Positions 985 through 7,972 of a stretch of 7,972 bases of DNA are shown piece after piece (position 1 is the stretch's first letter; each line of letters begins with the position of its first letter). Source of the stretch: a virus. Lineage: Duplodnaviria > Heunggongvirae > Uroviricota > Caudoviricetes. Location of the stretch: the IMG/VR virus record IMGVR_UViG_2681813263_000012; one strand, 5' to 3'. The notes below the pieces were generated by a model. It worked only from the letters and a program-made list of their open reading frames with translations. It made no database searches and was not told the origin of the DNA. The translations under genes were made by a program, and so were the position numbers.

Positions 985-2065
985 NNNNNNNNNNNNNNNN
1001 NNNNNNNNNNNNNNNNNNNNNNNNNNNNNNNNNNNNNNNNNNNNNNNNNNNNNNNNNNNNNNNNNNNNNNNNNNNNNNNNNNNNNNNNNNNNNNNNNNNN
1101 NNNNNNNNNNNNNNNNNNNNNNNNNNNNNNNNNNNNNNNNNNNNNNNNNNNNNNNNNNNNNNNNNNNNNNNNNNNNNNNNNNNNNNNNNNNNNNNNNNNN
1201 NNNNNNNNNNNNNNNNNNNNNNNNNNNNNNNNNNNNNNNNNNNNNNNNNNNNNNNNNNNNNNNNNNNNNNNNNNNNNNNNNNNNNNNNNNNNNNNNNNNN
1301 NNNNNNNNNNNNNNNNNNNNNNNNNNNNNNNNNNNNNNNNNNNNNNNNNNNNNNNNNNNNNNNNNNNNNNNNNNNNNNNNNNNNNNNNNNNNNNNNNNNN
1401 NNNNNNNNNNNNNNNNNNNNNNNNNNNNNNNNNNNNNNNNNNNNNNNNNNNNNNNNNNNNNNNNNNNNNNNNNNNNNNNNNNNNNNNNNNNNNNNNNNNN
1501 NNNNNNNNNNNNNNNNNNNNNNNNNNNNNNNNNNNNNNNNNNNNNNNNNNNNNNNNNNNNNNNNNNNNNNNNNNNNNNNNNNNNNNNNNNNNNNNNNNNN
1601 NNNNNNNNNNNNNNNNNNNNNNNNNNNNNNNNNNNNNNNNNNNNNNNNNNNNNNNNNNNNNNNNNNNNNNNNNNNNNNNNNNNNNNNNNNNNNNNNNNNN
1701 NNNNNNNNNNNNNNNNNNNNNNNNNNNNNNNNNNNNNNNNNNNNNNNNNNNNNNNNNNNNNNNNNNNNNNNNNNNNNNNNNNNNNNNNNNNNNNNNNNNN
1801 NNNNNNNNNNNNNNNNNNNNNNNNNNNNNNNNNNNNNNNNNNNNNNNNNNNNNNNNNNNNNNNNNNNNNNNNNNNNNNNNNNNNNNNNNNNNNNNNNNNN
1901 NNNNNNNNNNNNNNNNNNNNNNNNNNNNNNNNNNNNNNNNNNNNNNNNNNNNNNNNNNNNNNNNNNNNNNNNNNNNNNNNNNNNNNNNNNNNNNNNNNNN
2001 NNNNNNNNNNNNNNNNNNNNNNNNNNNNNNNNNNNNNNNNNNNNNNNNNNNNNNNNNNNNNNNNN
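985..2065. other. N-masked gap (1081 nt)
   Basis: Uninterrupted run of n. It hides the 3' end of the 2066-2590 gene and the 5' end of the tape-measure-like gene. Confidence 1.
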
Positions 2066-2816: not shown

Positions 2817-2912
2817 TCATTCGTTCACCCCTTAGTTTATTTGTTATTTCAATTTATAGAAGCACACTCAGCAATCAGAGGTGAAGAGTCTGACTGAACA
2901 AGAACCTGCCAA

Positions 2913-3578
2913 NNNNNNNNNNNNNNNNNNNNNNNNNNNNNNNNNNNNNNNNNNNNNNNNNNNNNNNNNNNNNNNNNNNNNNNNNNNNNNNNNNNNNNNN
3001 NNNNNNNNNNNNNNNNNNNNNNNNNNNNNNNNNNNNNNNNNNNNNNNNNNNNNNNNNNNNNNNNNNNNNNNNNNNNNNNNNNNNNNNNNNNNNNNNNNNN
3101 NNNNNNNNNNNNNNNNNNNNNNNNNNNNNNNNNNNNNNNNNNNNNNNNNNNNNNNNNNNNNNNNNNNNNNNNNNNNNNNNNNNNNNNNNNNNNNNNNNNN
3201 NNNNNNNNNNNNNNNNNNNNNNNNNNNNNNNNNNNNNNNNNNNNNNNNNNNNNNNNNNNNNNNNNNNNNNNNNNNNNNNNNNNNNNNNNNNNNNNNNNNN
3301 NNNNNNNNNNNNNNNNNNNNNNNNNNNNNNNNNNNNNNNNNNNNNNNNNNNNNNNNNNNNNNNNNNNNNNNNNNNNNNNNNNNNNNNNNNNNNNNNNNNN
3401 NNNNNNNNNNNNNNNNNNNNNNNNNNNNNNNNNNNNNNNNNNNNNNNNNNNNNNNNNNNNNNNNNNNNNNNNNNNNNNNNNNNNNNNNNNNNNNNNNNNN
3501 NNNNNNNNNNNNNNNNNNNNNNNNNNNNNNNNNNNNNNNNNNNNNNNNNNNNNNNNNNNNNNNNNNNNNNNNNNNNNN
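2913..3578. other. N-masked gap (666 nt)
   Basis: Run of n immediately downstream (minus sense) of paralog B. It hides the paralog B 3' end and whatever follows. Confidence 1.
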
Positions 3579-3873
3579 GAATATTATCGCTATACAAAAT
3601 TGCTATAGCCGCCTTGAGATATTTTTCAGGGCTAACGCTGTATTTGTTCGTTTCTTCGATAATAAGACGCTTCATGTTTGAGTCGGTAACAGGAAACATA
3701 AAACGCGGTTCACCAGTTTCAATTTCCTGAATAAAGTCTTCAATTTCTTCTGAGTTTTCAGCCATTAGCTTTAGTAATTTATCAAGGTCAATTGATACAC
3801 CGGAATCAGCGAAAGCCTGCACCATCATAGCAGTGTCGCTATCAATGAAAATCTGTAATTCATATTCGTTCAT
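3579..3873 (-). CDS. Small hypothetical protein, paralog B of the 4515-4838 gene; first 98 aa visible, 3' end in N-run
   Basis: ATG at 3873-3871 with AGGAG 8-9 nt upstream (aaaaggagattttaaaaATG). The protein MNEYELQIFIDSDTAMMVQAFADSG...AILYSDNI aligns along its whole length with the 4515-4838 product. The ORF-track TTG start at 3906 is unlikely. Confidence 0.7.
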
Positions 3874-4211
3874 TTTTAAAATCTCCTTTTTACCAGACCT
3901 CCTCAATCGCTCTGTAACGAGCTAAACAGTCTTTTTCAGGGGTAGCCTGTACAGTGGTATTACCCACCCTAAAATAAGATAGTTTTTTGCGTTAGAATGC
4001 GATTGAGAGCGTCTGATAAGCTGTTTTTCTAATTTCTCTTAAAGTCTCGGACTACCAATAACCTAATTCCGCTTTATTTCGTTCAAACCATTCCGCTGTA
4101 ACTGCTGTCTTTAGTGTTGCGTTTGGGCTGGTGGCATGAATGAAGATATCTTTTGGATTGCAAGCATCACCGAAACCACCTTCTTTGATGAGCAGGTCTG
4201 ATACATGCTTA

Positions 4212-4222
4212 NNNNNNNNNNN
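4212..4222. other. N-masked gap (11 nt, not a multiple of 3)
   Basis: Run of n. The reading frame across it cannot be trusted. Confidence 1.
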
Positions 4223-4384
4223 GCAAAGGATTCAATAATGAATGAACAAGAGTACTTTTTGAGATAGCCTCTCAGACTAACCTGAAAGGCCATGACGAAA
4301 AGCATTGCACCTTTCCAACTCAGAATATCCATCCATCGGATTATTGAAAGAAAAATAAGAGAGAATTGCTCTCCCATAATTAAA

Positions 4385-4413
4385 ATTATGCCATGCTTAA
4401 GGTTATTTGTCAA
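4385..4413 (-). promoter_or_regulatory. Candidate sigma70-type promoter (TTGACA-17 nt-CATAAT) reading leftward
   Basis: Minus-strand TTGACA at 4413-4408, a 17-nt spacer, then CATAAT at 4390-4385. A weak hairpin and U-tract follow at about 4377-4346 (gggagag-caatt-ctctctt then ttattttt). Confidence 0.35.
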
Positions 4414-4437
4414 CAGCTTTTTAACAGGTTGATAACA

Positions 4438-4515
4438 TCAATTCTTATTTACCGCATTGTTAATAATACAACCAACAAATAAGCCAAGCAACGTCCAAGC
4501 AATTATTAAACCCAT
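4438..4515 (-). CDS. Candidate 25-aa hydrophobic peptide (MGLIIAWTLLGLFVGCIINNAVNKN), translationally coupled to paralog A
   Basis: Its ATG at 4515-4513 overlaps the paralog A stop as TAATG. GAGGG lies about 9 nt upstream. A single predicted transmembrane-like helix, then TGA at 4440-4438. Too short for the ORF track; found by manual translation. Confidence 0.3.
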   Translation of the reverse strand: MGLIIAWTLLGLFVGCIINNAVNKN

Positions 4516-4838
4516 TAGTGAACCCTCACAGAATCCGTCACCAGAATATTATCACTGTACAGGATTGTCACAGCACCTTTCAAAAATTGCTCTGGGGAAA
4601 TACTGTATATGTTCGTTTGCTCGATAACCAATCTTTTCATGTTGCTGTCTGTAATTGGTAGCATCATTCGAGGCTCGTTAAACTCCACCGACTGAATAAA
4701 GTCAGAGATGTTTTCTGCATTATCAGCCATCAGCTTTAGTAATTTATCAAAATTAATTGCGATACCTGCATCAATGAAGCTTTGCACCATCATAGCAGTG
4801 TCGTTATCAACCATAATTTGCATTGGGTAATTATTCAT
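4515..4838 (-). CDS. Small hypothetical protein (107 aa), paralog A
   Basis: ATG at 4838-4836 with AGGAG about 8 nt upstream (cataggagatttaaaaATG); stop TAA at 4515-4517. Product MNNYPMQIMVDNDTAMMVQSFIDAGIAINFDKLLKLMADN... The longer ORF-track start at 4961 lacks an RBS and lies in the leader. Confidence 0.75.
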   Translation of the reverse strand: MNNYPMQIMVDNDTAMMVQSFIDAGIAINFDKLLKLMADNAENISDFIQSVEFNEPRMMLPITDSNMKRLVIEQTNIYSISPEQFLKGAVTILYSDNILVTDSVRVH

Positions 4839-5005
4839 TTTTAAATCTCCTATGAAACACACCTCAGACCTCTTAAAATAGCCATTCTGAGGCCAGTAAC
4901 CATGCGGGTTACAGAGGGAGTTGCACTGGCTGGTAAGGTAATTTATCAAATTAAGGTGCAACTCTGCCTGTAAAGTGCATTCTACCGTTTCTTAGATGGT
5001 TATTT

Positions 5006-5425
5006 TTAATTGTCTTTATTAATCAATGATTTAACGTAGAAATACTGTCTCCGTGAAATACCATATTTTTCTGTAATGTATCGCTGAGATTGACCAGCAT
5101 TTATGGCCTGAGTGATATCATCACGGTTATAGCGGTTACCACGGGATTTATATTTGTCACCATCCACATCTTCTGAGGTATTGAAGTCTTCAATCAGCTT
5201 AATTGCATCGTGAAGGTCATCTTCTGAGGCATAATCGAAGGTATGGATAATCTCAAAATCACCAGTATCTGCTGGTGCATTCTTCCATCTGGAGAAGCGG
5301 GATTTTAATTGCTGGTGTGTGAAGGGTTCAGCATTACGAGTTAAATCTTTCCATGTTCCGTTATTCTCACGGACAAGGTGACCTCTATGGCGATAAAACG
5401 CATGATAATCAAATGTGCATAGCAT
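5006..5425 (-). CDS. DNA-binding protein with C-terminal Hin/resolvase-type HTH (139 aa)
   Basis: Start overlaps the upstream RHH gene stop (TAATG). The C-terminus ...ITQAINAGQSQRYITEKYGISRRQYFYV fits the helix-turn-helix pattern of resolvase/invertase C-terminal domains. The N-terminal domain is unrecognised. Confidence 0.7.
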   Translation of the reverse strand: MLCTFDYHAFYRHRGHLVRENNGTWKDLTRNAEPFTHQQLKSRFSRWKNAPADTGDFEIIHTFDYASEDDLHDAIKLIEDFNTSEDVDGDKYKSRGNRYNRDDITQAINAGQSQRYITEKYGISRRQYFYVKSLINKDN

Positions 5426-5715
5426 TAAACCCCCAGCTTATCCGCCAGTTGATGAACCTTGGCACTCAACACCTGAATCATTGAGCAACCTGCCACTGCG
5501 GACTGTGCTTTGAGTAGTTCCAGTTGGCCCGTTGTGATTCTGATGGCCTTAGAACCCTCTGCAACGCCCTTGATAGCGTCAAACGGTGTAAGGGCTGTGT
5601 GTTCCTTCAGAATCTCACCAACAAGTGCTGTGTGGCTCATGGCTGGGTATTTGTCTTTGATTGCTGCCAGTCTGGAATATGCCTCTGGCAAAAGGCGTGT
5701 AACTGTGTGTCTCAT
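5425..5715 (-). CDS. Ribbon-helix-helix (CopG/Arc-like) DNA-binding regulator, probably tandem RHH (96 aa)
   Basis: ATG at 5715-5713 with AAGGAA about 8 nt upstream. N-terminus MRHTVTRLLPEAYSRLAAIKDKYPAMSHTALVGEILKEH fits a beta-strand/helix/helix RHH fold pattern. A second similar unit (KAIRITTGQLELLKAQSAVAGCSMIQVLSAKVHQL) follows. Confidence 0.65.
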   Translation of the reverse strand: MRHTVTRLLPEAYSRLAAIKDKYPAMSHTALVGEILKEHTALTPFDAIKGVAEGSKAIRITTGQLELLKAQSAVAGCSMIQVLSAKVHQLADKLGV

Positions 5716-5853
5716 TAAATTTTCCTTCTTAAAATCTTTGACTTATAACTAACTTTAACATATTTATAACATATTGTCAACAACTCATTTACATGTTAAT
5801 ATGGTTGTAGGGGGCTGATACAGGTCATTCCCTTTGATAAATAAGGGGAATTA
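5716..5853. promoter_or_regulatory. Divergent AT-rich intergenic region with promoter-like hexamers and a 9-bp direct repeat (candidate operator)
   Basis: TAACATATT at 5756-5764 and again at 5767-5775, spaced 11 bp. TTGTCAA at 5774-5780 reads as TTGACA on the minus strand and TTGTCA on the plus strand. TTGACT at 5738-5743. Plus-strand TTGTCA-17-TAATAT at 5774-5802. Confidence 0.4.
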
Positions 5854-6039
5854 ATGGGCTTTCTTGAAACAATTGCTGAATCTCACAGATTCGCAAGCTT
5901 AGGTTGCTTTGTGTTTCTGGTGCTTCTTGTGTATCAGCTTTTAAAAATGATTATCGCCAAAAGTACACGATTCAATTTCAGCATTAAGCTTTTCAAATAT
6001 GAAATCACAATTACGATTGATGATGGTAAAACAAACTAA
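5854..6039 (+). CDS. Candidate small membrane protein (61 aa, one hydrophobic helix)
   Basis: The only plus-strand ORF with a good RBS (AAGGGG 5 nt before ATG at 5854). Hydrophobic stretch LGCFVFLVLLVYQLL. Its stop overlaps the stop of the convergent minus-strand gene, so it could be antisense noise. Confidence 0.4.
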   Translation: MGFLETIAESHRFASLGCFVFLVLLVYQLLKMIIAKSTRFNFSIKLFKYEITITIDDGKTN

Positions 6040-6326
6040 CGTTTTGTGATAATATTGGTGGCCTTTAAGTTGCTGGGGTCACCGTCTTTTAATCGTAGCT
6101 GGTGGATTGAATTCCAGATATCAAAATGATACAGCACTGCAAACCTCAAAGCGTCAATCTTTAAATCTGTCACACCATCGTAAAAGAAATAACCCCTCCC
6201 TTCTTTCTTTGGTCTAATCCGGTAAACTTCCCCGTGAGTATCCTTCATAAGATGACCTTCACGAGAAATGCTGTAACGCTTTAACAGGTAATCTTTGTAT
6301 CTCTTTTCACCGTGATATTCTTTCAT
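6036..6326 (-). CDS. Hypothetical protein (96 aa), possibly nuclease-like
   Basis: ATG at 6326-6324 overlaps the upstream stop (TAATG), with GGAGG about 9 nt upstream. C-terminal ...HFDIWNSIHQLRLKDGDPSNLKATNI only loosely resembles HNH-type motifs; this is not a confident assignment. Confidence 0.6.
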   Translation of the reverse strand: MKEYHGEKRYKDYLLKRYSISREGHLMKDTHGEVYRIRPKKEGRGYFFYDGVTDLKIDALRFAVLYHFDIWNSIHQLRLKDGDPSNLKATNIITKR

Positions 6327-6808
6327 TACTTAATTCCTCCACCGGCAAAATACATCTTCGGTTTAATTTTTTGCTTCTTGTCATCCTGAGTTTGTTTCTT
6401 TTTCGGTGAAAGATAATAATCATCTTCACTGTCATCGAATGGGTCTAAACCCGATACTTTGTTCTTTTGTCTTGCAAGCTCGAATCTCTTTTTCTTCTCT
6501 GCCCTCTTAATGGCTTTTTCACGTTCATCCTCTTCATCATCGAAGGGGTCCAACTCATCATCAGTGGCGGGGCACTGTGTGTTTTTATGGTCACTATCAA
6601 CACTCACATCAGTGATTTCTCTGTCTTGTTTAGAAGTCTTTTTAGAGCTTACTTCAAGGTCAGATTCATTCATAGAGAGAAAATCATTTAATTCATCCAA
6701 AGAAAGAAAGTCATCTTCTTTAATATCATCATTAAGTCCAGTCTCTTTATTCTTATCTGTAATATTATTATCTAATGTTTTATCTAATAACTTATCTAAC
6801 TCTAACAC
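6326..6808 (-). CDS. Highly acidic, low-complexity protein (160 aa) with repeated LDPFDD(E/S)EDD motif and a basic C-terminal tail
   Basis: Probable GTG start at 6808-6806 with AGAGG about 8 nt upstream and an in-frame stop just before it. The first internal ATG lacks an RBS. D/E-rich with two LDPFDD copies. The 5' coding region coincides with the AT-rich origin-like repeats. Confidence 0.55.
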   Translation of the reverse strand: MLELDKLLDKTLDNNITDKNKETGLNDDIKEDDFLSLDELNDFLSMNESDLEVSSKKTSKQDREITDVSVDSDHKNTQCPATDDELDPFDDEEDEREKAIKRAEKKKRFELARQKNKVSGLDPFDDSEDDYYLSPKKKQTQDDKKQKIKPKMYFAGGGIK

Positions 6809-6886
6809 GGGTGACCTCTAACACGGGTGACATTTTGTCACTACCCCCATGACATTTTGTCACTGGTAGTGGTGTCATTTTGTCTT
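6753..6886. repeat. Origin-like repeat block: AT-rich TTATCTAA 12-mers, a 16-bp tandem repeat x2, and three iteron-like repeats at 22-bp phasing
   Basis: TTATCTAA at 6768, 6780 and 6792 (12-bp spacing), plus ttatctgt at 6753. ctctaacacgggtgac at 6800-6815 and 6816-6831, perfect tandem. gtgacattttgtcact at 6827-6842, atgacattttgtcact at 6849-6864, and degenerate ggtgtcattttgtctt at 6871-6886. All checked base by base. Confidence 0.6.
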
Positions 6887-7230
6887 ACTGAGGCTGCAAC
6901 TTCCTGTGATGTAGGTCTTACAAGTAATTCCGGCTTATCATCCAGTGTGAATACACGATAAGTGCTTTGACGCCCCTGATTCTTTTGCACCTGAATTAAA
7001 CCGTGTTTCTCAAGTGTCTCAATGGCTCTGATTGCTGTTCTCTTTGATACACCAGCCATATAAGCGAGATGGTCAATACTTGGTGAATATGATTTGTATT
7101 TCTCTTCATAGAAGTCACAGCTATGGACCATGACCATATAAATCAATCTTGCTGCTGCGTTAATTTCTTCTGAAAGTTGAGAGATTCGCACATCAAATTT
7201 ATAAAACTGATTTGGGTTATATTTAGACAT
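6841..7230 (-). CDS. Replication initiator-like protein, lambda-O N-terminal-type winged HTH (129 aa)
   Basis: ATG at 7230-7228 with GAGGT about 9 nt upstream; stop TAG at 6841-6843. Segment ...SIDHLAYMAGVSKRTAIRAIETLEKHGLIQVQ... matches the HTH pattern I recall for phage O-type and plasmid replication-initiator N-terminal domains. The gene's 3' end overlaps the iterons. Confidence 0.65.
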   Translation of the reverse strand: MSKYNPNQFYKFDVRISQLSEEINAAARLIYMVMVHSCDFYEEKYKSYSPSIDHLAYMAGVSKRTAIRAIETLEKHGLIQVQKNQGRQSTYRVFTLDDKPELLVRPTSQEVAASVRQNDTTTSDKMSWG

Positions 7231-7460
7231 TCATAAATTACCTCATACGTGAAAAGGCCAACCGGATAAAACCGATTAGCCTGTGTGATTAAAATATCTG
7301 GGGGATTGATGGACTGATAAAGAAGTCCATGCCTGAAACAGTACGATGATTAAAACGCTGAGGTATACCCTGAATGAGAGGTTAATATACGCCAACCATC
7401 TGACACCTCCCCAAGTGTTACCACTTCAAGACATGAACTTTTTTATCAGCCCATATAGAA

Positions 7461-7489
7461 ACTATAACAGATGTGATTATAAATTGCAA
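7461..7489 (-). promoter_or_regulatory. Candidate sigma70-type promoter (TTGCAA-17 nt-TATAGT) for the replication operon
   Basis: Minus-strand TTGCAA at 7489-7484, a 17-nt spacer, then TATAGT at 7466-7461. It lies in the 363-bp non-coding gap upstream of the initiator gene. Confidence 0.3.
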
Positions 7490-7593
7490 CAATTATTTCA
7501 CAGAATGATTACTGATTGGTCATTTATTGTTCACGGGGATACTTCTTAACATCTGAATCACCTGTCTTGTAAATGACCATATTTATGAGAATT

Positions 7594-7972
7594 TTAGCTC
7601 AACCTTTGAGCAATCCTGTATGACGTGCTCAGAGGCATTCTGAGAGCATCTGCAATGTACTTAATGGGTTTTCCTTGCCTGTATAGTTTTATGAAGCTGT
7701 CGAGCGTCTCAGGTGGGTAAATGGTGGGTCTTCCTCTTAGTCCACCACGGTTAATGATGGTTAACGGTAGCAATGTATCAGCACAGCAAACCATCTGTGT
7801 AATTTCATGCTTACGTGGTTCTTTTTTAAAAACAACGACTGCACTTGGAAACGGTGACCTAATAGTAAGCCTGTTATGCCCTGCTGGTGGAAGGTATTTA
7901 ACTGCACGATGAAGAATACGGATTTCATGACAGTGGTTATTGCTGTAAATGTGCCTAAGCCAGTAGCTGGTG
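7594..7972 (-). CDS. DNA-binding protein with C-terminal Hin/resolvase-type HTH; 5' end beyond window
   Basis: Manual translation shows the frame of ORF 7594-7794 stays open up to the window edge (...TSYWLRHIYSNNHCHEIRILHRAVKYLPPAGHNRLTIRSPFPSAVVVFKKEPRKHEITQMVCC...). C-terminus GRPTIYPPETLDSFIKLYRQGKPIKYIADALRMPLSTSYRIAQ fits the resolvase-type HTH pattern. No serine-recombinase catalytic motifs in the visible part. Confidence 0.45.
   Translation of the reverse strand, partial: TSYWLRHIYSNNHCHEIRILHRAVKYLPPAGHNRLTIRSPFPSAVVVFKKEPRKHEITQMVCCADTLLPLTIINRGGLRGRPTIYPPETLDSFIKLYRQGKPIKYIADALRMPLSTSYRIAQRLS

Follow-up and report, generated by a model that had tools for sequence, protein, structure and literature searches.

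The locus at positions 5006–6039 of the window (the whole stretch of DNA analysed, 7,972 nt) raises the question of what a small ribbon-helix-helix (RHH) regulator controls when its gene is followed by a coupled partner gene and faces a divergent membrane-protein gene. An earlier note had described a tandem-RHH protein at 5425–5715, coupled through a TAATG overlap to a 139-aa protein with an unrecognised N-domain and a helix-turn-helix (HTH), along with 9-bp direct repeats in 11-bp phasing, bidirectional promoter-like hexamers and a 61-aa single-helix membrane ORF with a strong RBS. Each of these elements was recovered in our analysis.

The 96-aa RHH ORF (5425–5715) lies on the minus strand, and its product is predicted to be a DNA-binding regulator, a tandem RHH in a single chain. 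In the AF2 model, which is of medium confidence (pLDDT 68.6), DSSP assigned a first unit with a strand at residues 3–7 and helices at 10–22 and 28–36, and a second unit with a strand at 57–61 and helices at 62–75 and 79–94. These two strands, one per unit, are the only ones in the model and would form an antiparallel ribbon within one chain. The top structural matches were F-plasmid TraY and single-chain Arc, and whole-chain superposition covered 71 residues with single-chain Arc and 72 with TraY. In the alignment, the ribbon residues were invariant. The turn before the second helix of repeat 2 is an invariant G76-C77-(S/T)78 (compared with G-x-S/T/N in RHH proteins), and the corresponding turn of repeat 1 is (S/K)27-H28-(T/S)29, without Gly. 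The linker of 16 residues is predicted to be disordered and has conserved F45, D46, V51, E53 and G54. No RHH sequence profile was found for the protein in Pfam, NCBIfam, PHROG or PDB sequences, even at E ≤ 1–10, and hhalign detected no similarity between the N- and C-terminal halves of the alignment. The tandem arrangement is read solely from the predicted structure, and this model directly predicts a single-chain pseudo-dimer of two RHH units.

Upstream of the RHH gene is a non-coding core (5752–5825) that holds both promoters and a repeat array. Conservation within the locus peaks here, with 57 of 74 columns invariant and a mean pairwise identity of 0.915 (91.5%) in 16 loci, compared with 0.64 and 0.68 for the flanking leaders, 0.85 for the RHH coding sequence and 0.71 for the small ORF. 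The leftward promoter, P_L (5752–5780, minus strand), has a −35 element TTGACA (5780–5775), a 17-nt spacer and a TG-extended −10 element TAAAGT (5757–5752), i.e. 10/12 matches to a sigma-70-like consensus plus the TG. Its −35 was invariant and its −10 alternated only between TAAAGT and TAAGAT, with T1, A2 and T6 retained. The rightward promoter, P_R (5774–5802, plus strand), combines a −35 element TTGTCA (5774–5779) with a 17-nt spacer and a TG-extended −10 element TAATAT (5797–5802), also sigma-70-like with nine of 12 consensus positions plus the TG; the −10 variants TAATAT, TATTAT and TACTAT all retained the TAnnAT consensus and the upstream TG. The two −35 hexamers overlap (TTGTCAA). The number of promoter-like sites in the intergenic region was not above chance; the case for P_L and P_R is made from their position and conservation. 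The core had no meaningful similarity to phage DNA, and an Rfam scan of the region gave no match.

The 9-bp direct repeats are exact copies of TAACATATT at 5756–5764 and 5767–5775 (plus strand), spaced 11 bp start to start and located in the P_L spacer and −10. They were confirmed by a pattern search and were not listed by a general repeat finder; when the intergenic region was dinucleotide-shuffled, 2.7% of the shuffles contained a 9-bp exact repeat at a distance of 8–30. The sequence TAACAT-N5-TAACAT was invariant across the 16 loci. Both repeats fall within a four-site array with an 11-bp period (5757–5794, plus strand), consisting of AACAT at 5757, AACAT at 5768, AACAA at 5779 and TACAT at 5790, which spans both promoters. 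Using a WACAW motif, defined post hoc once the data had been seen, we found four sites at period 11 in 0/2000 shuffled windows. Neither strand of the window, L003, L004 or L015 has another array of at least three WACAW sites at that period, and this one occurs once per locus, at P_L/P_R only. The core, as seen or directly predicted, contains two back-to-back sigma-70-type promoters with overlapping −35s and four 11-bp-phased WACAW sites, and the array is a candidate operator for the RHH protein. The E. albertii-type relatives (L017–L019) lack 54 bp including the repeats and the shared −35, and their ribbon residues are unchanged; either these relatives have a different operator, or RHH binding takes place elsewhere than at the repeats.

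The gene that follows the RHH gene, a 139-aa ORF on the minus strand (5006–5425), shares base 5425 with it, so that the minus strand reads TAATG at this stop/start overlap (5423–5427). An SD-like GGGGG run lies upstream, and the arrangement agrees with translational coupling of the two genes. The 139-aa protein consists of an N-domain (residues ∼7–83), a basic disordered linker and a C-terminal three-helix HTH, possibly of the serine-recombinase type (Pfam HTH_7/HTH_23/HTH_28 group). It matched no family, the N-domain is novel, and the protein is an orphan whose family has 13 representatives among 1.84 billion proteins, all unannotated. A BFVD structure search gave one significant match, to an unnamed viral protein that shares this two-domain architecture (E = 2.5e-5); other matches, including GIY-YIG, NUMOD4 and HNH proteins, had E values of 0.5–0.9 and were too weak for use. 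Elsewhere, this position is occupied by genes for 141-aa, 128-aa, 73/76-aa (N-domain only) or 71-aa proteins. At least four slot types lie behind near-identical RHH alleles, the same RHH and linker alleles pairing with 141-aa, 128-aa, 76-aa and 71-aa downstream genes, and the 139-aa type is absent from about a third of the sampled E. coli loci. The N-domain-only variant is homologous (hhalign 83%, E = 9e-6), and the 1-nt overlap with the RHH gene is kept in every N-domain-containing slot type. The gene after the RHH gene is thus an exchangeable slot that varies independently of RHH alleles.

On the other side of the core, a 61-aa ORF (5854–6039, plus strand) encodes a single-pass membrane protein with one hydrophobic TM helix (residues 16–34; KD19 = 2.4), and an SD sequence (AAGGGGA, 5843–5849) ends 4 nt before its ATG. 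The earlier note had allowed that this small ORF might not be conserved, but it was open in 19/19 loci. Its alleles are 46% identical, with pS of 0.82 versus pN of 0.38 and 28/16/37 differences at the three codon positions, and no other reading frame is open in both alleles. The small membrane protein family comprises about 30 clusters, with in-frame indels in the TM helix, and PGAP annotates the gene in L002 and L008 (WP_000506009.1). The ORF is a real gene for a membrane protein conserved under purifying selection and, therefore, an exclusion or membrane-toxin role is possible. In its leader, a predicted hairpin (5827–5851, plus strand) in which AUUCCCUUU pairs with AAGGGGAAU covers the SD. 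This SD-pairing hairpin was a feature of the MFE structure in 6/6 distinct leader variants with differing arm sequences, although its z-scores were weak one by one and individually not significant (−0.04 to −2.2). The 3′ end of the gene is met with a 4-nt overlap by a convergent gene for another 96-aa protein, a hypothetical one (6036–6326, minus strand), which is the last gene of the upstream Rep/Dam operon; no terminator-like sites were found between the two.

The module resides in a ∼13-kb serine-recombinase integrative island of E. coli/Shigella. The island encodes a large serine recombinase and a Rep-like HTH_36 protein whose gene contains internal iteron-like repeats, and its only virion genes are those for a tape-measure protein (TMP) and a Dit-like protein. 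The Dit-like protein shares 75% identity with Felix O1 ORF68, and for the TMP N-terminus the identity is 53%. In the leftward operon, the order is RHH gene, slot gene, unknown genes and then the tape-measure and distal-tail genes. Given that these genes are related to those of virulent Felix O1-like phages, the island is a candidate satellite; it combines an integrase, its own replication module, an incomplete virion gene set and Felix O1-lineage genes. Homologue searches, both word-indexed and exhaustive, found only close Escherichia, Shigella and Citrobacter relatives and a handful of distant unannotated proteins, and a scan of the genome contigs found one locus only. The 3.6-kb stretch containing the module had no matches in DNA searches of phage and plasmid collections, nor did the RHH, 139-aa and 236-aa island proteins in tblastn searches of the phage collection. 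PDB sequence searches with the module proteins, single-sequence and profile, returned noise only. The RHH, slot and 61-aa proteins are orphans, and the functions given for them here are ones we infer. Literature searches turned up neither a Felix O1-related satellite nor any account of the module's proteins.

We propose, as somewhat probable, that the region is a transcriptional control hub, an autoregulatory RHH switch heading the structural operon of the island. The predicted RHH protein would bind the phased direct repeats, since direct repeats suit an asymmetric single-chain RHH. As the two perfect repeats sit in the P_L spacer and −10, this binding would repress the protein's own operon, i.e. 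the RHH, slot and unknown genes and the tape-measure and distal-tail genes. If sites 3 and 4, which are weaker, were filled as well, the shared −35 and the P_R spacer would be covered, and this would determine how expression is balanced between the leftward operon and the membrane-protein gene on the right. The 139-aa slot protein, translated together with the RHH protein, would bind DNA in an accessory role and most likely serve as an effector or regulator at other targets, belonging either to the island or to a helper phage. Levels of the 61-aa protein may be held down by the hairpin over its SD and by transcription converging on its gene from the Rep operon. The locus had earlier been likened to a genetic switch or an exclusion or toxin-type module. 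Its switch half is well supported by the conserved divergent-promoter core, the phased repeats and the adjoining RHH gene, and we infer a genetic switch on these grounds; the toxin half is not supported.

Other readings of the coupled pair were weighed against this RHH switch. In a type II toxin–antitoxin pair, the RHH protein would be the antitoxin and autorepressor and the 139-aa protein the toxin, and the RHH-first order, 1-nt overlap and likely autoregulated promoter are typical of such operons; in addition, the conserved residues in the disordered linker could form a protein-contact motif. However, scans with toxin, antitoxin and defence profiles (Pfam, PHROGs, NCBIfam and PADLOC) were empty for both proteins. 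The modelled RHH protein also has no C-terminal neutralising tail, since its two units and linker use all 96 residues, and the second protein bears an HTH. Furthermore, RHH and slot do not co-vary, as seen where the same RHH and linker alleles precede slot genes of four lengths, and some loci are without the 139-aa type. With no toxin family, no neutralising tail and an exchangeable slot without co-variation, we rejected this reading as very unlikely. Even less probable is a role for either or both of the RHH and 139-aa proteins as the recombination directionality factor (RDF, excisionase) of the large serine recombinase. Small DNA-binding proteins (RHH, HTH) commonly act in excision, and no RDF is annotated for the island's serine integrase, but one and the same 128-aa slot protein is found with integrases sharing just 36% identity at different attachment sites, integrases that are 93–94% identical accompany three different slot types, and the repeat array sits at a promoter and not at an island end. 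This reading was rejected because slot type does not track integrase type.

A routine late-gene activator would be another role for the 139-aa protein, which in its size, its N-domain with C-terminal HTH and its position upstream of structural genes fits a Mor/C-like activator of these genes, with the RHH protein as partner repressor. The protein has no sequence similarity to Mor/C or any family, however, and some islands carry the N-domain-only version or no homologue ahead of the same structural genes. The operon layout can therefore do without the 139-aa protein, and we regard the Mor/C-like role as quite unlikely. It is also doubtful that the 61-aa membrane protein is a payload, either a type-I-like toxin or a superinfection-exclusion or abortive-infection protein, which the RHH module mainly controls. 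Such a payload would suit a small single-TM protein under purifying selection, with an SD-pairing leader hairpin in all variants, encoded by the sole plus-strand gene of the island besides the integrase. The convergent 3′ overlap without a terminator would, in addition, give antisense transcription. Against this, the protein matched no known small-toxin family and no Rfam antisense RNA was found; the only hit in the profile scans (Pfam, PHROGs, NCBIfam and PADLOC) was a weak PHROG of unknown function (E = 0.011), and the 61-aa alleles assort independently of RHH leader and slot alleles.

A broader form of the RHH switch can be envisaged, in which the module is the master switch of an undescribed family of satellites in E. 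coli, Shigella and Citrobacter, living as parasites of virulent Felix O1-like myoviruses, with a silencing RHH protein, an arms-race effector in the slot and a membrane exclusion or abortive factor; we hold this extension to be speculative and unlikely as a whole. Under it, the RHH protein would silence the island at the shared-promoter core, the slot effector (the N-domain with or without an HTH) would sense or redirect the helper phage, and the 61-aa protein would act in the resident state.

Viewed by itself, the module amounts to a divergent-promoter region under RHH control, a design familiar in phages and plasmids. Its interest lies in an operator and promoter layout, open to testing, for a single-chain tandem RHH, which is a rare type of protein; the layout has direct repeats on one helix face and a shared −35. 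It also defines three orphan families, those of the RHH protein, of the N-domain protein (HTH present or absent) and of a 58–62-aa membrane protein, which are confined to one island family and are annotated as hypothetical or not at all. Finally, it is an entry point to an island with virulent Felix O1-like tape-measure and distal-tail genes behind the switch, which may represent, in E. coli, an equivalent of lytic-phage satellites.

Several known systems resemble parts of this design. F-plasmid TraY has a tandem RHH in one polypeptide, as predicted for the 96-aa regulator, but the latter has no TraY profile match and only 14% identity in the structural alignment. The island also has no relaxase, oriT or conjugation genes, and the regulator is not a relaxosome protein. 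In the immI region of P22, the Arc and Mnt RHH repressors act at overlapping divergent promoters, Pant and Pmnt, and arc and ant form an operon. The module similarly has an RHH regulator first in the operon and then a putative effector gene. By analogy, its close divergent promoters, with an operator inside a promoter and occupancy of one affecting the other, may follow the logic by which Arc and Mnt control Pant/Pmnt, the likeness to Arc being structural. However, one single-chain tandem RHH here replaces the two separate dimeric or tetrameric repressors of P22, direct repeats replace palindromic half-sites, and the divergent gene encodes a membrane protein where P22 has another repressor; homology to Ant is absent. 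In systems of the CopG/pMV158 and omega types, a small RHH protein is encoded first in its operon and binds repeated sites, about one helical turn apart, over its own promoter. The module shares both this gene order and this phasing over its own promoter, but CopG and omega proteins are homodimers of about 45–71 aa that serve plasmid copy number or partition, in contrast to the fused pseudo-dimer of 96 aa encoded here, in an integrative island that carries tail genes. AvtR, a tandem-RHH regulator of an archaeal lipothrixvirus, has no sequence relationship to the 96-aa protein and differs in its operators. For the island as a whole, the closest parallel is PLE of Vibrio cholerae, a satellite of the virulent myovirus ICP1 (PMC7145576, PMC10945586). 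According to these reports, PLE is likewise a small island located in the chromosome, and it too has a large serine recombinase, its own replication initiator, an incomplete virion gene set and a link to a virulent myovirus (PMC7145576, PMC10945586). The two share no genes, and the E. coli/Shigella island differs from PLE in carrying copies of helper-type tape-measure and distal-tail genes.

On the minus strand, the ORFs of the predicted ribbon-helix-helix (RHH) protein (96 aa, 5425-5715) and of a 139-aa protein (5006-5425) share base 5425 in a TAATG stop/start overlap just downstream of a GGGGG run, and a 61-aa membrane-protein ORF (5854-6039) is read from the plus strand. The N-masked runs of the window (985-2065, 2770-2816, 2913-3578 and 4212-4222) all lie outside this module. 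A promoter scan recovered two TG-extended sigma-70-like sites between the diverging ORFs: a leftward site, P_L (TTGACA 5780-5775, 17-nt spacer, TAAAGT 5757-5752; 10/12 matches), and a rightward site, P_R (TTGTCA 5774-5779, 17-nt spacer, TAATAT 5797-5802; 9/12 matches), whose -35 hexamers overlap as TTGTCAA. Since such sites were no more frequent in 4400-7972 than expected from shuffles (7 against 11.6), the hexamers alone do not prove promoters. We compared this region in 16 loci from E. coli, Shigella and Citrobacter. Mean pairwise identity was 0.915 in the intergenic core (5752-5825; 57 of 74 columns invariant), 0.85 in the RHH coding sequence, 0.71 in the small ORF and 0.64 and 0.68 in the flanking 5′ leaders. 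Substitutions in the -10 elements of P_L (TAAAGT, TAAGAT) and P_R (TAATAT, TATTAT, TACTAT) retained consensus positions and the upstream TG.

The core also contains exact copies of the 9-mer TAACATATT at 5756-5764 and 5767-5775. Such a repeat was found in 2.7% of shuffles and is thus only modestly unlikely by itself; TAACAT-N5-TAACAT was invariant in the 16 loci. The repeats continue as an array of four sites spaced at exactly 11 bp (AACAT 5757, AACAT 5768, AACAA 5779, TACAT 5790) that spans the P_L -10 to the P_R -10 and occurs once per locus. Both strands of the window and of three further complete loci contained no second array with at least three such sites. Four sites were reached in none of 2,000 shuffled windows, a figure that overstates significance because the motif was chosen after inspection. 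Three E. albertii-type islands call for caution: 54 bp, among them the direct repeats and the shared -35, are missing from these islands, and only the P_R -10 region is retained; their RHH proteins are 75-78% identical, with a single change (L8I) in strand 1 and an unchanged KAIRIT in strand 2. In these islands (L017:7919-8001, L018 and L019), the RHH gene is only 81 bp away from the small ORF, and a 247-260-aa upstream gene replaces the 96-aa and Rep genes.

No sequence method assigned the RHH protein to a family. Its homologues form 40 clusters (72-100% identity), all from Escherichia, Shigella or Citrobacter, and it is identical to a Shigella sonnei protein. In an AlphaFold2 (AF2) model built from 22 homologues (pLDDT 68.6, pTM 0.63), one predicted unit (strand 3-7, helices 10-22 and 28-36) is joined by a disordered linker (39-54) to another (strand 57-61, helices 62-75 and 79-94). 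The ribbon strands (HTVTR, KAIRIT) and the G76-C77 turn show no variation. The two halves share no detectable sequence similarity, and the predicted structure gives good support to a single-chain tandem RHH protein.

The 61-aa ORF is a gene. It was open in all 19 loci, and its two main alleles (46% protein identity) differ at 28, 16 and 37 first, second and third codon positions (pS 0.82, saturated; pN 0.38), with no other reading frame across it open in both. Citrobacter-type islands have a third allele. The family (∼30 clusters, found only in these islands) combines an invariant ESH(R)F-x-SLG, a transmembrane helix, a basic stretch and alternating hydrophobic residues at the C terminus. Its members carry in-frame hydrophobic indels in the helix; insertions of 3-6 residues (LVL, LVLLV, AVFI) in P0078 and P0080-P0082 alter its length and apparently arose by slippage on short repeats. 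PGAP annotated the gene in some genomes (WP_000506009.1) and missed it in others. In the minimum-energy fold of the leader, the Shine-Dalgarno sequence paired with an upstream pyrimidine run in six of six distinct variants, which differ in the sequence of that run; the individual energies were not significant. The window allele and the convergent 96-aa gene share 4 nt at their 3′ ends, and no terminator-like site was found between the two. Together, these results uphold what the earlier note had observed: the coupled overlap, the direct repeats, the bidirectional promoter-like hexamers, the predicted tandem RHH fold and the single-helix membrane protein.

The RHH gene is near-invariant across islands and the gene directly after it varies. 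This slot holds a 139/141-aa protein, a 128-aa protein 42% identical to it, a 73-76-aa protein homologous to only the N-domain (hhalign probability 83%, E = 9e-6) or an unrelated 71-aa protein. Among the E. coli matches sampled, about one in three begins exactly at the RHH stop, indicating a different downstream gene there. All N-domain-containing versions keep the 1-nt stop/start overlap, and slot type was not linked to the allele of the RHH linker. The 139-aa protein is a very small orphan family, with ten homologue clusters and only 13 proteins among 1.84 billion representatives in an exhaustive profile search. Its AF2 model (pLDDT 68, pTM 0.43) has an N-domain (strands 7-13, 16-21 and 24-27, helix 37-48, strand 58-64, helix 68-83), a disordered basic linker and a three-helix HTH (101-138). 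The N-domain pattern Y-x-x-x-G-H-L-V-R bears what we take to be a loose resemblance to Y-x-[IV]-S-x-x-G-x-L in the 96-aa upstream protein (6036-6326, minus strand; MKEYHGEKRYKDYLLKRYSISREGHLMKD...). The latter pattern presumably recalls NUMOD4/AP2-like beta-hairpin DNA-binding modules; that protein had no profile hit.

The window had no close match in phage and plasmid collections. Chromosomal matches were found in 484 of 5,426 complete E. coli genomes, 128 of which matched the 5006-6330 segment. In annotated genomes the window is part of a ∼13-kb element (L003:1230-13182) that splits yecE (DUF72) and in other strains adjoins yciI, putA or msyB. The gene order is a large serine recombinase (plus strand); a Dit-like (distal tail) protein, a tape-measure protein, 67-aa, 236-aa and 107-aa proteins with no assigned function, the variable slot and the RHH gene (minus); the small ORF (plus); and a 96-aa protein with no assigned function, a Rep-like HTH_36 protein, a Dam methylase and a Pin-like small recombinase (minus). 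Thus only the integrase and the small ORF are on the plus strand.

Several further features were observed in the island. The rep gene, intact elsewhere (310-325 aa), is split into 129-aa and 160-aa ORFs in the window (6326-7230), which has one 23-bp tandem repeat copy fewer than L001, L003 and L006 and a 22-bp duplication nearby. Its repeats (GTGACAAAATG... near 6841-6875) look like iterons, which also lie inside a replication gene in lambda O; the L002 allele has different internal repeats (ACTGAGTCAAAATTCTTTAC). Two paralogous ∼100-aa minus-strand proteins (4515-4961, MNNYPMQIMVDNDTAMMVQSF...; 3576-3906, MNEYELQIFIDSDTAMMVQAF...) had no family match; L003 has one copy (107 aa), and the second copy of the window extends into N-masked sequence. 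The ∼600 bp (3907-4514) that separate the 148-aa gene from the next minus-strand ORF (2875-3906) lack a convincing ORF, contain several short direct and inverted repeats, and could be a promoter, packaging site or other regulatory site. The Dam-type N6-adenine methyltransferase (7594-7972; L003:11626-12288) ends in a resolvase-type HTH (Pfam HTH_7, E = 2.5e-5, last 66 residues), an unusual fusion. IS21, IS3 and IS66 family elements have inserted independently in the tape-measure, tail or 236-aa region of different strains (L001:14372-16674, L002:6436-7649, L003:6173-7342, L004:1708-4020). PGAP labels the 236-aa protein 'transposase' in some genomes; it had no Pfam or PHROG hit.

Over 98% of its length, the Dit-like protein shares 75% identity with ORF68 of the virulent myovirus Felix O1, in which the ORF68 gene comes immediately after the tape-measure gene, the identical order to that in the island (Felix O1 41881-44906). 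It matched 299 phage records, mostly Felix O1-like (Felixounavirus) by name, and the tape-measure N-terminus is 53% identical to its Felix O1 counterpart. The island has no capsid, terminase or further tail genes, and these features mark it as a candidate satellite of, or parasite on, Felix O1-like phages. A mobile satellite-like element would also fit better than a decaying prophage, since the islands have their own Rep-like protein, with 23-bp iteron-like repeats inside its gene, and carry at least four distinct serine integrases, at four sites in the chromosome. We found no description of such a Felix O1-related island in the searchable literature. We consider the module to be of moderate interest, and the island that it would control to be of higher interest.

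We propose that the RHH protein governs the divergent promoters. As a single-chain RHH protein is asymmetric, its operator would be expected to consist of direct repeats on one helix face. The leftward promoter is the stronger one, and the two perfect repeats fall in its spacer and -10; RHH protein bound to them would thus place the RHH-headed operon under negative autoregulation. If sites 3 and 4 were filled in addition, the shared -35 and the spacer of P_R would be covered. Since the two -35 hexamers overlap, RNA polymerase bound at one promoter should block use of the other. The extent of RHH binding would in this way determine how transcription is shared between the structural operon, read leftward, and the membrane-protein gene, read rightward. 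The slot protein would be translated together with the RHH protein. A membrane toxin or exclusion function for the 61-aa protein, which is possible although rather unlikely, would be compatible with this model.

Other roles were considered for the coupled proteins. That the 139-aa protein is a late-gene activator is improbable, as no homology supports it and many islands do without the protein. The variability of the slot points to an accessory effector, not a core regulator. The earlier note had likened the module to a genetic switch or an exclusion or toxin-type module. Its switch reading stands as a switch-like regulator hub, and the toxin-antitoxin reading was dropped: three of four defining features were absent, making such a pairing of the RHH and 139-aa proteins very unlikely. 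Slot type was also not linked to the integrase, as the 128-aa type occurs with integrases only 36% identical, and three slot types occur with integrases 93-94% identical. This contradicts a recombination directionality factor role for either or both proteins, which we regard as very unlikely.

The RHH-controlled switch that we favour has its closest functional analogue in P22, where the Pant/Pmnt promoter pair is under Arc/Mnt control. In conclusion, the module follows a known design, RHH-autoregulated divergent promoters in a mobile element, built here from three orphan protein families.
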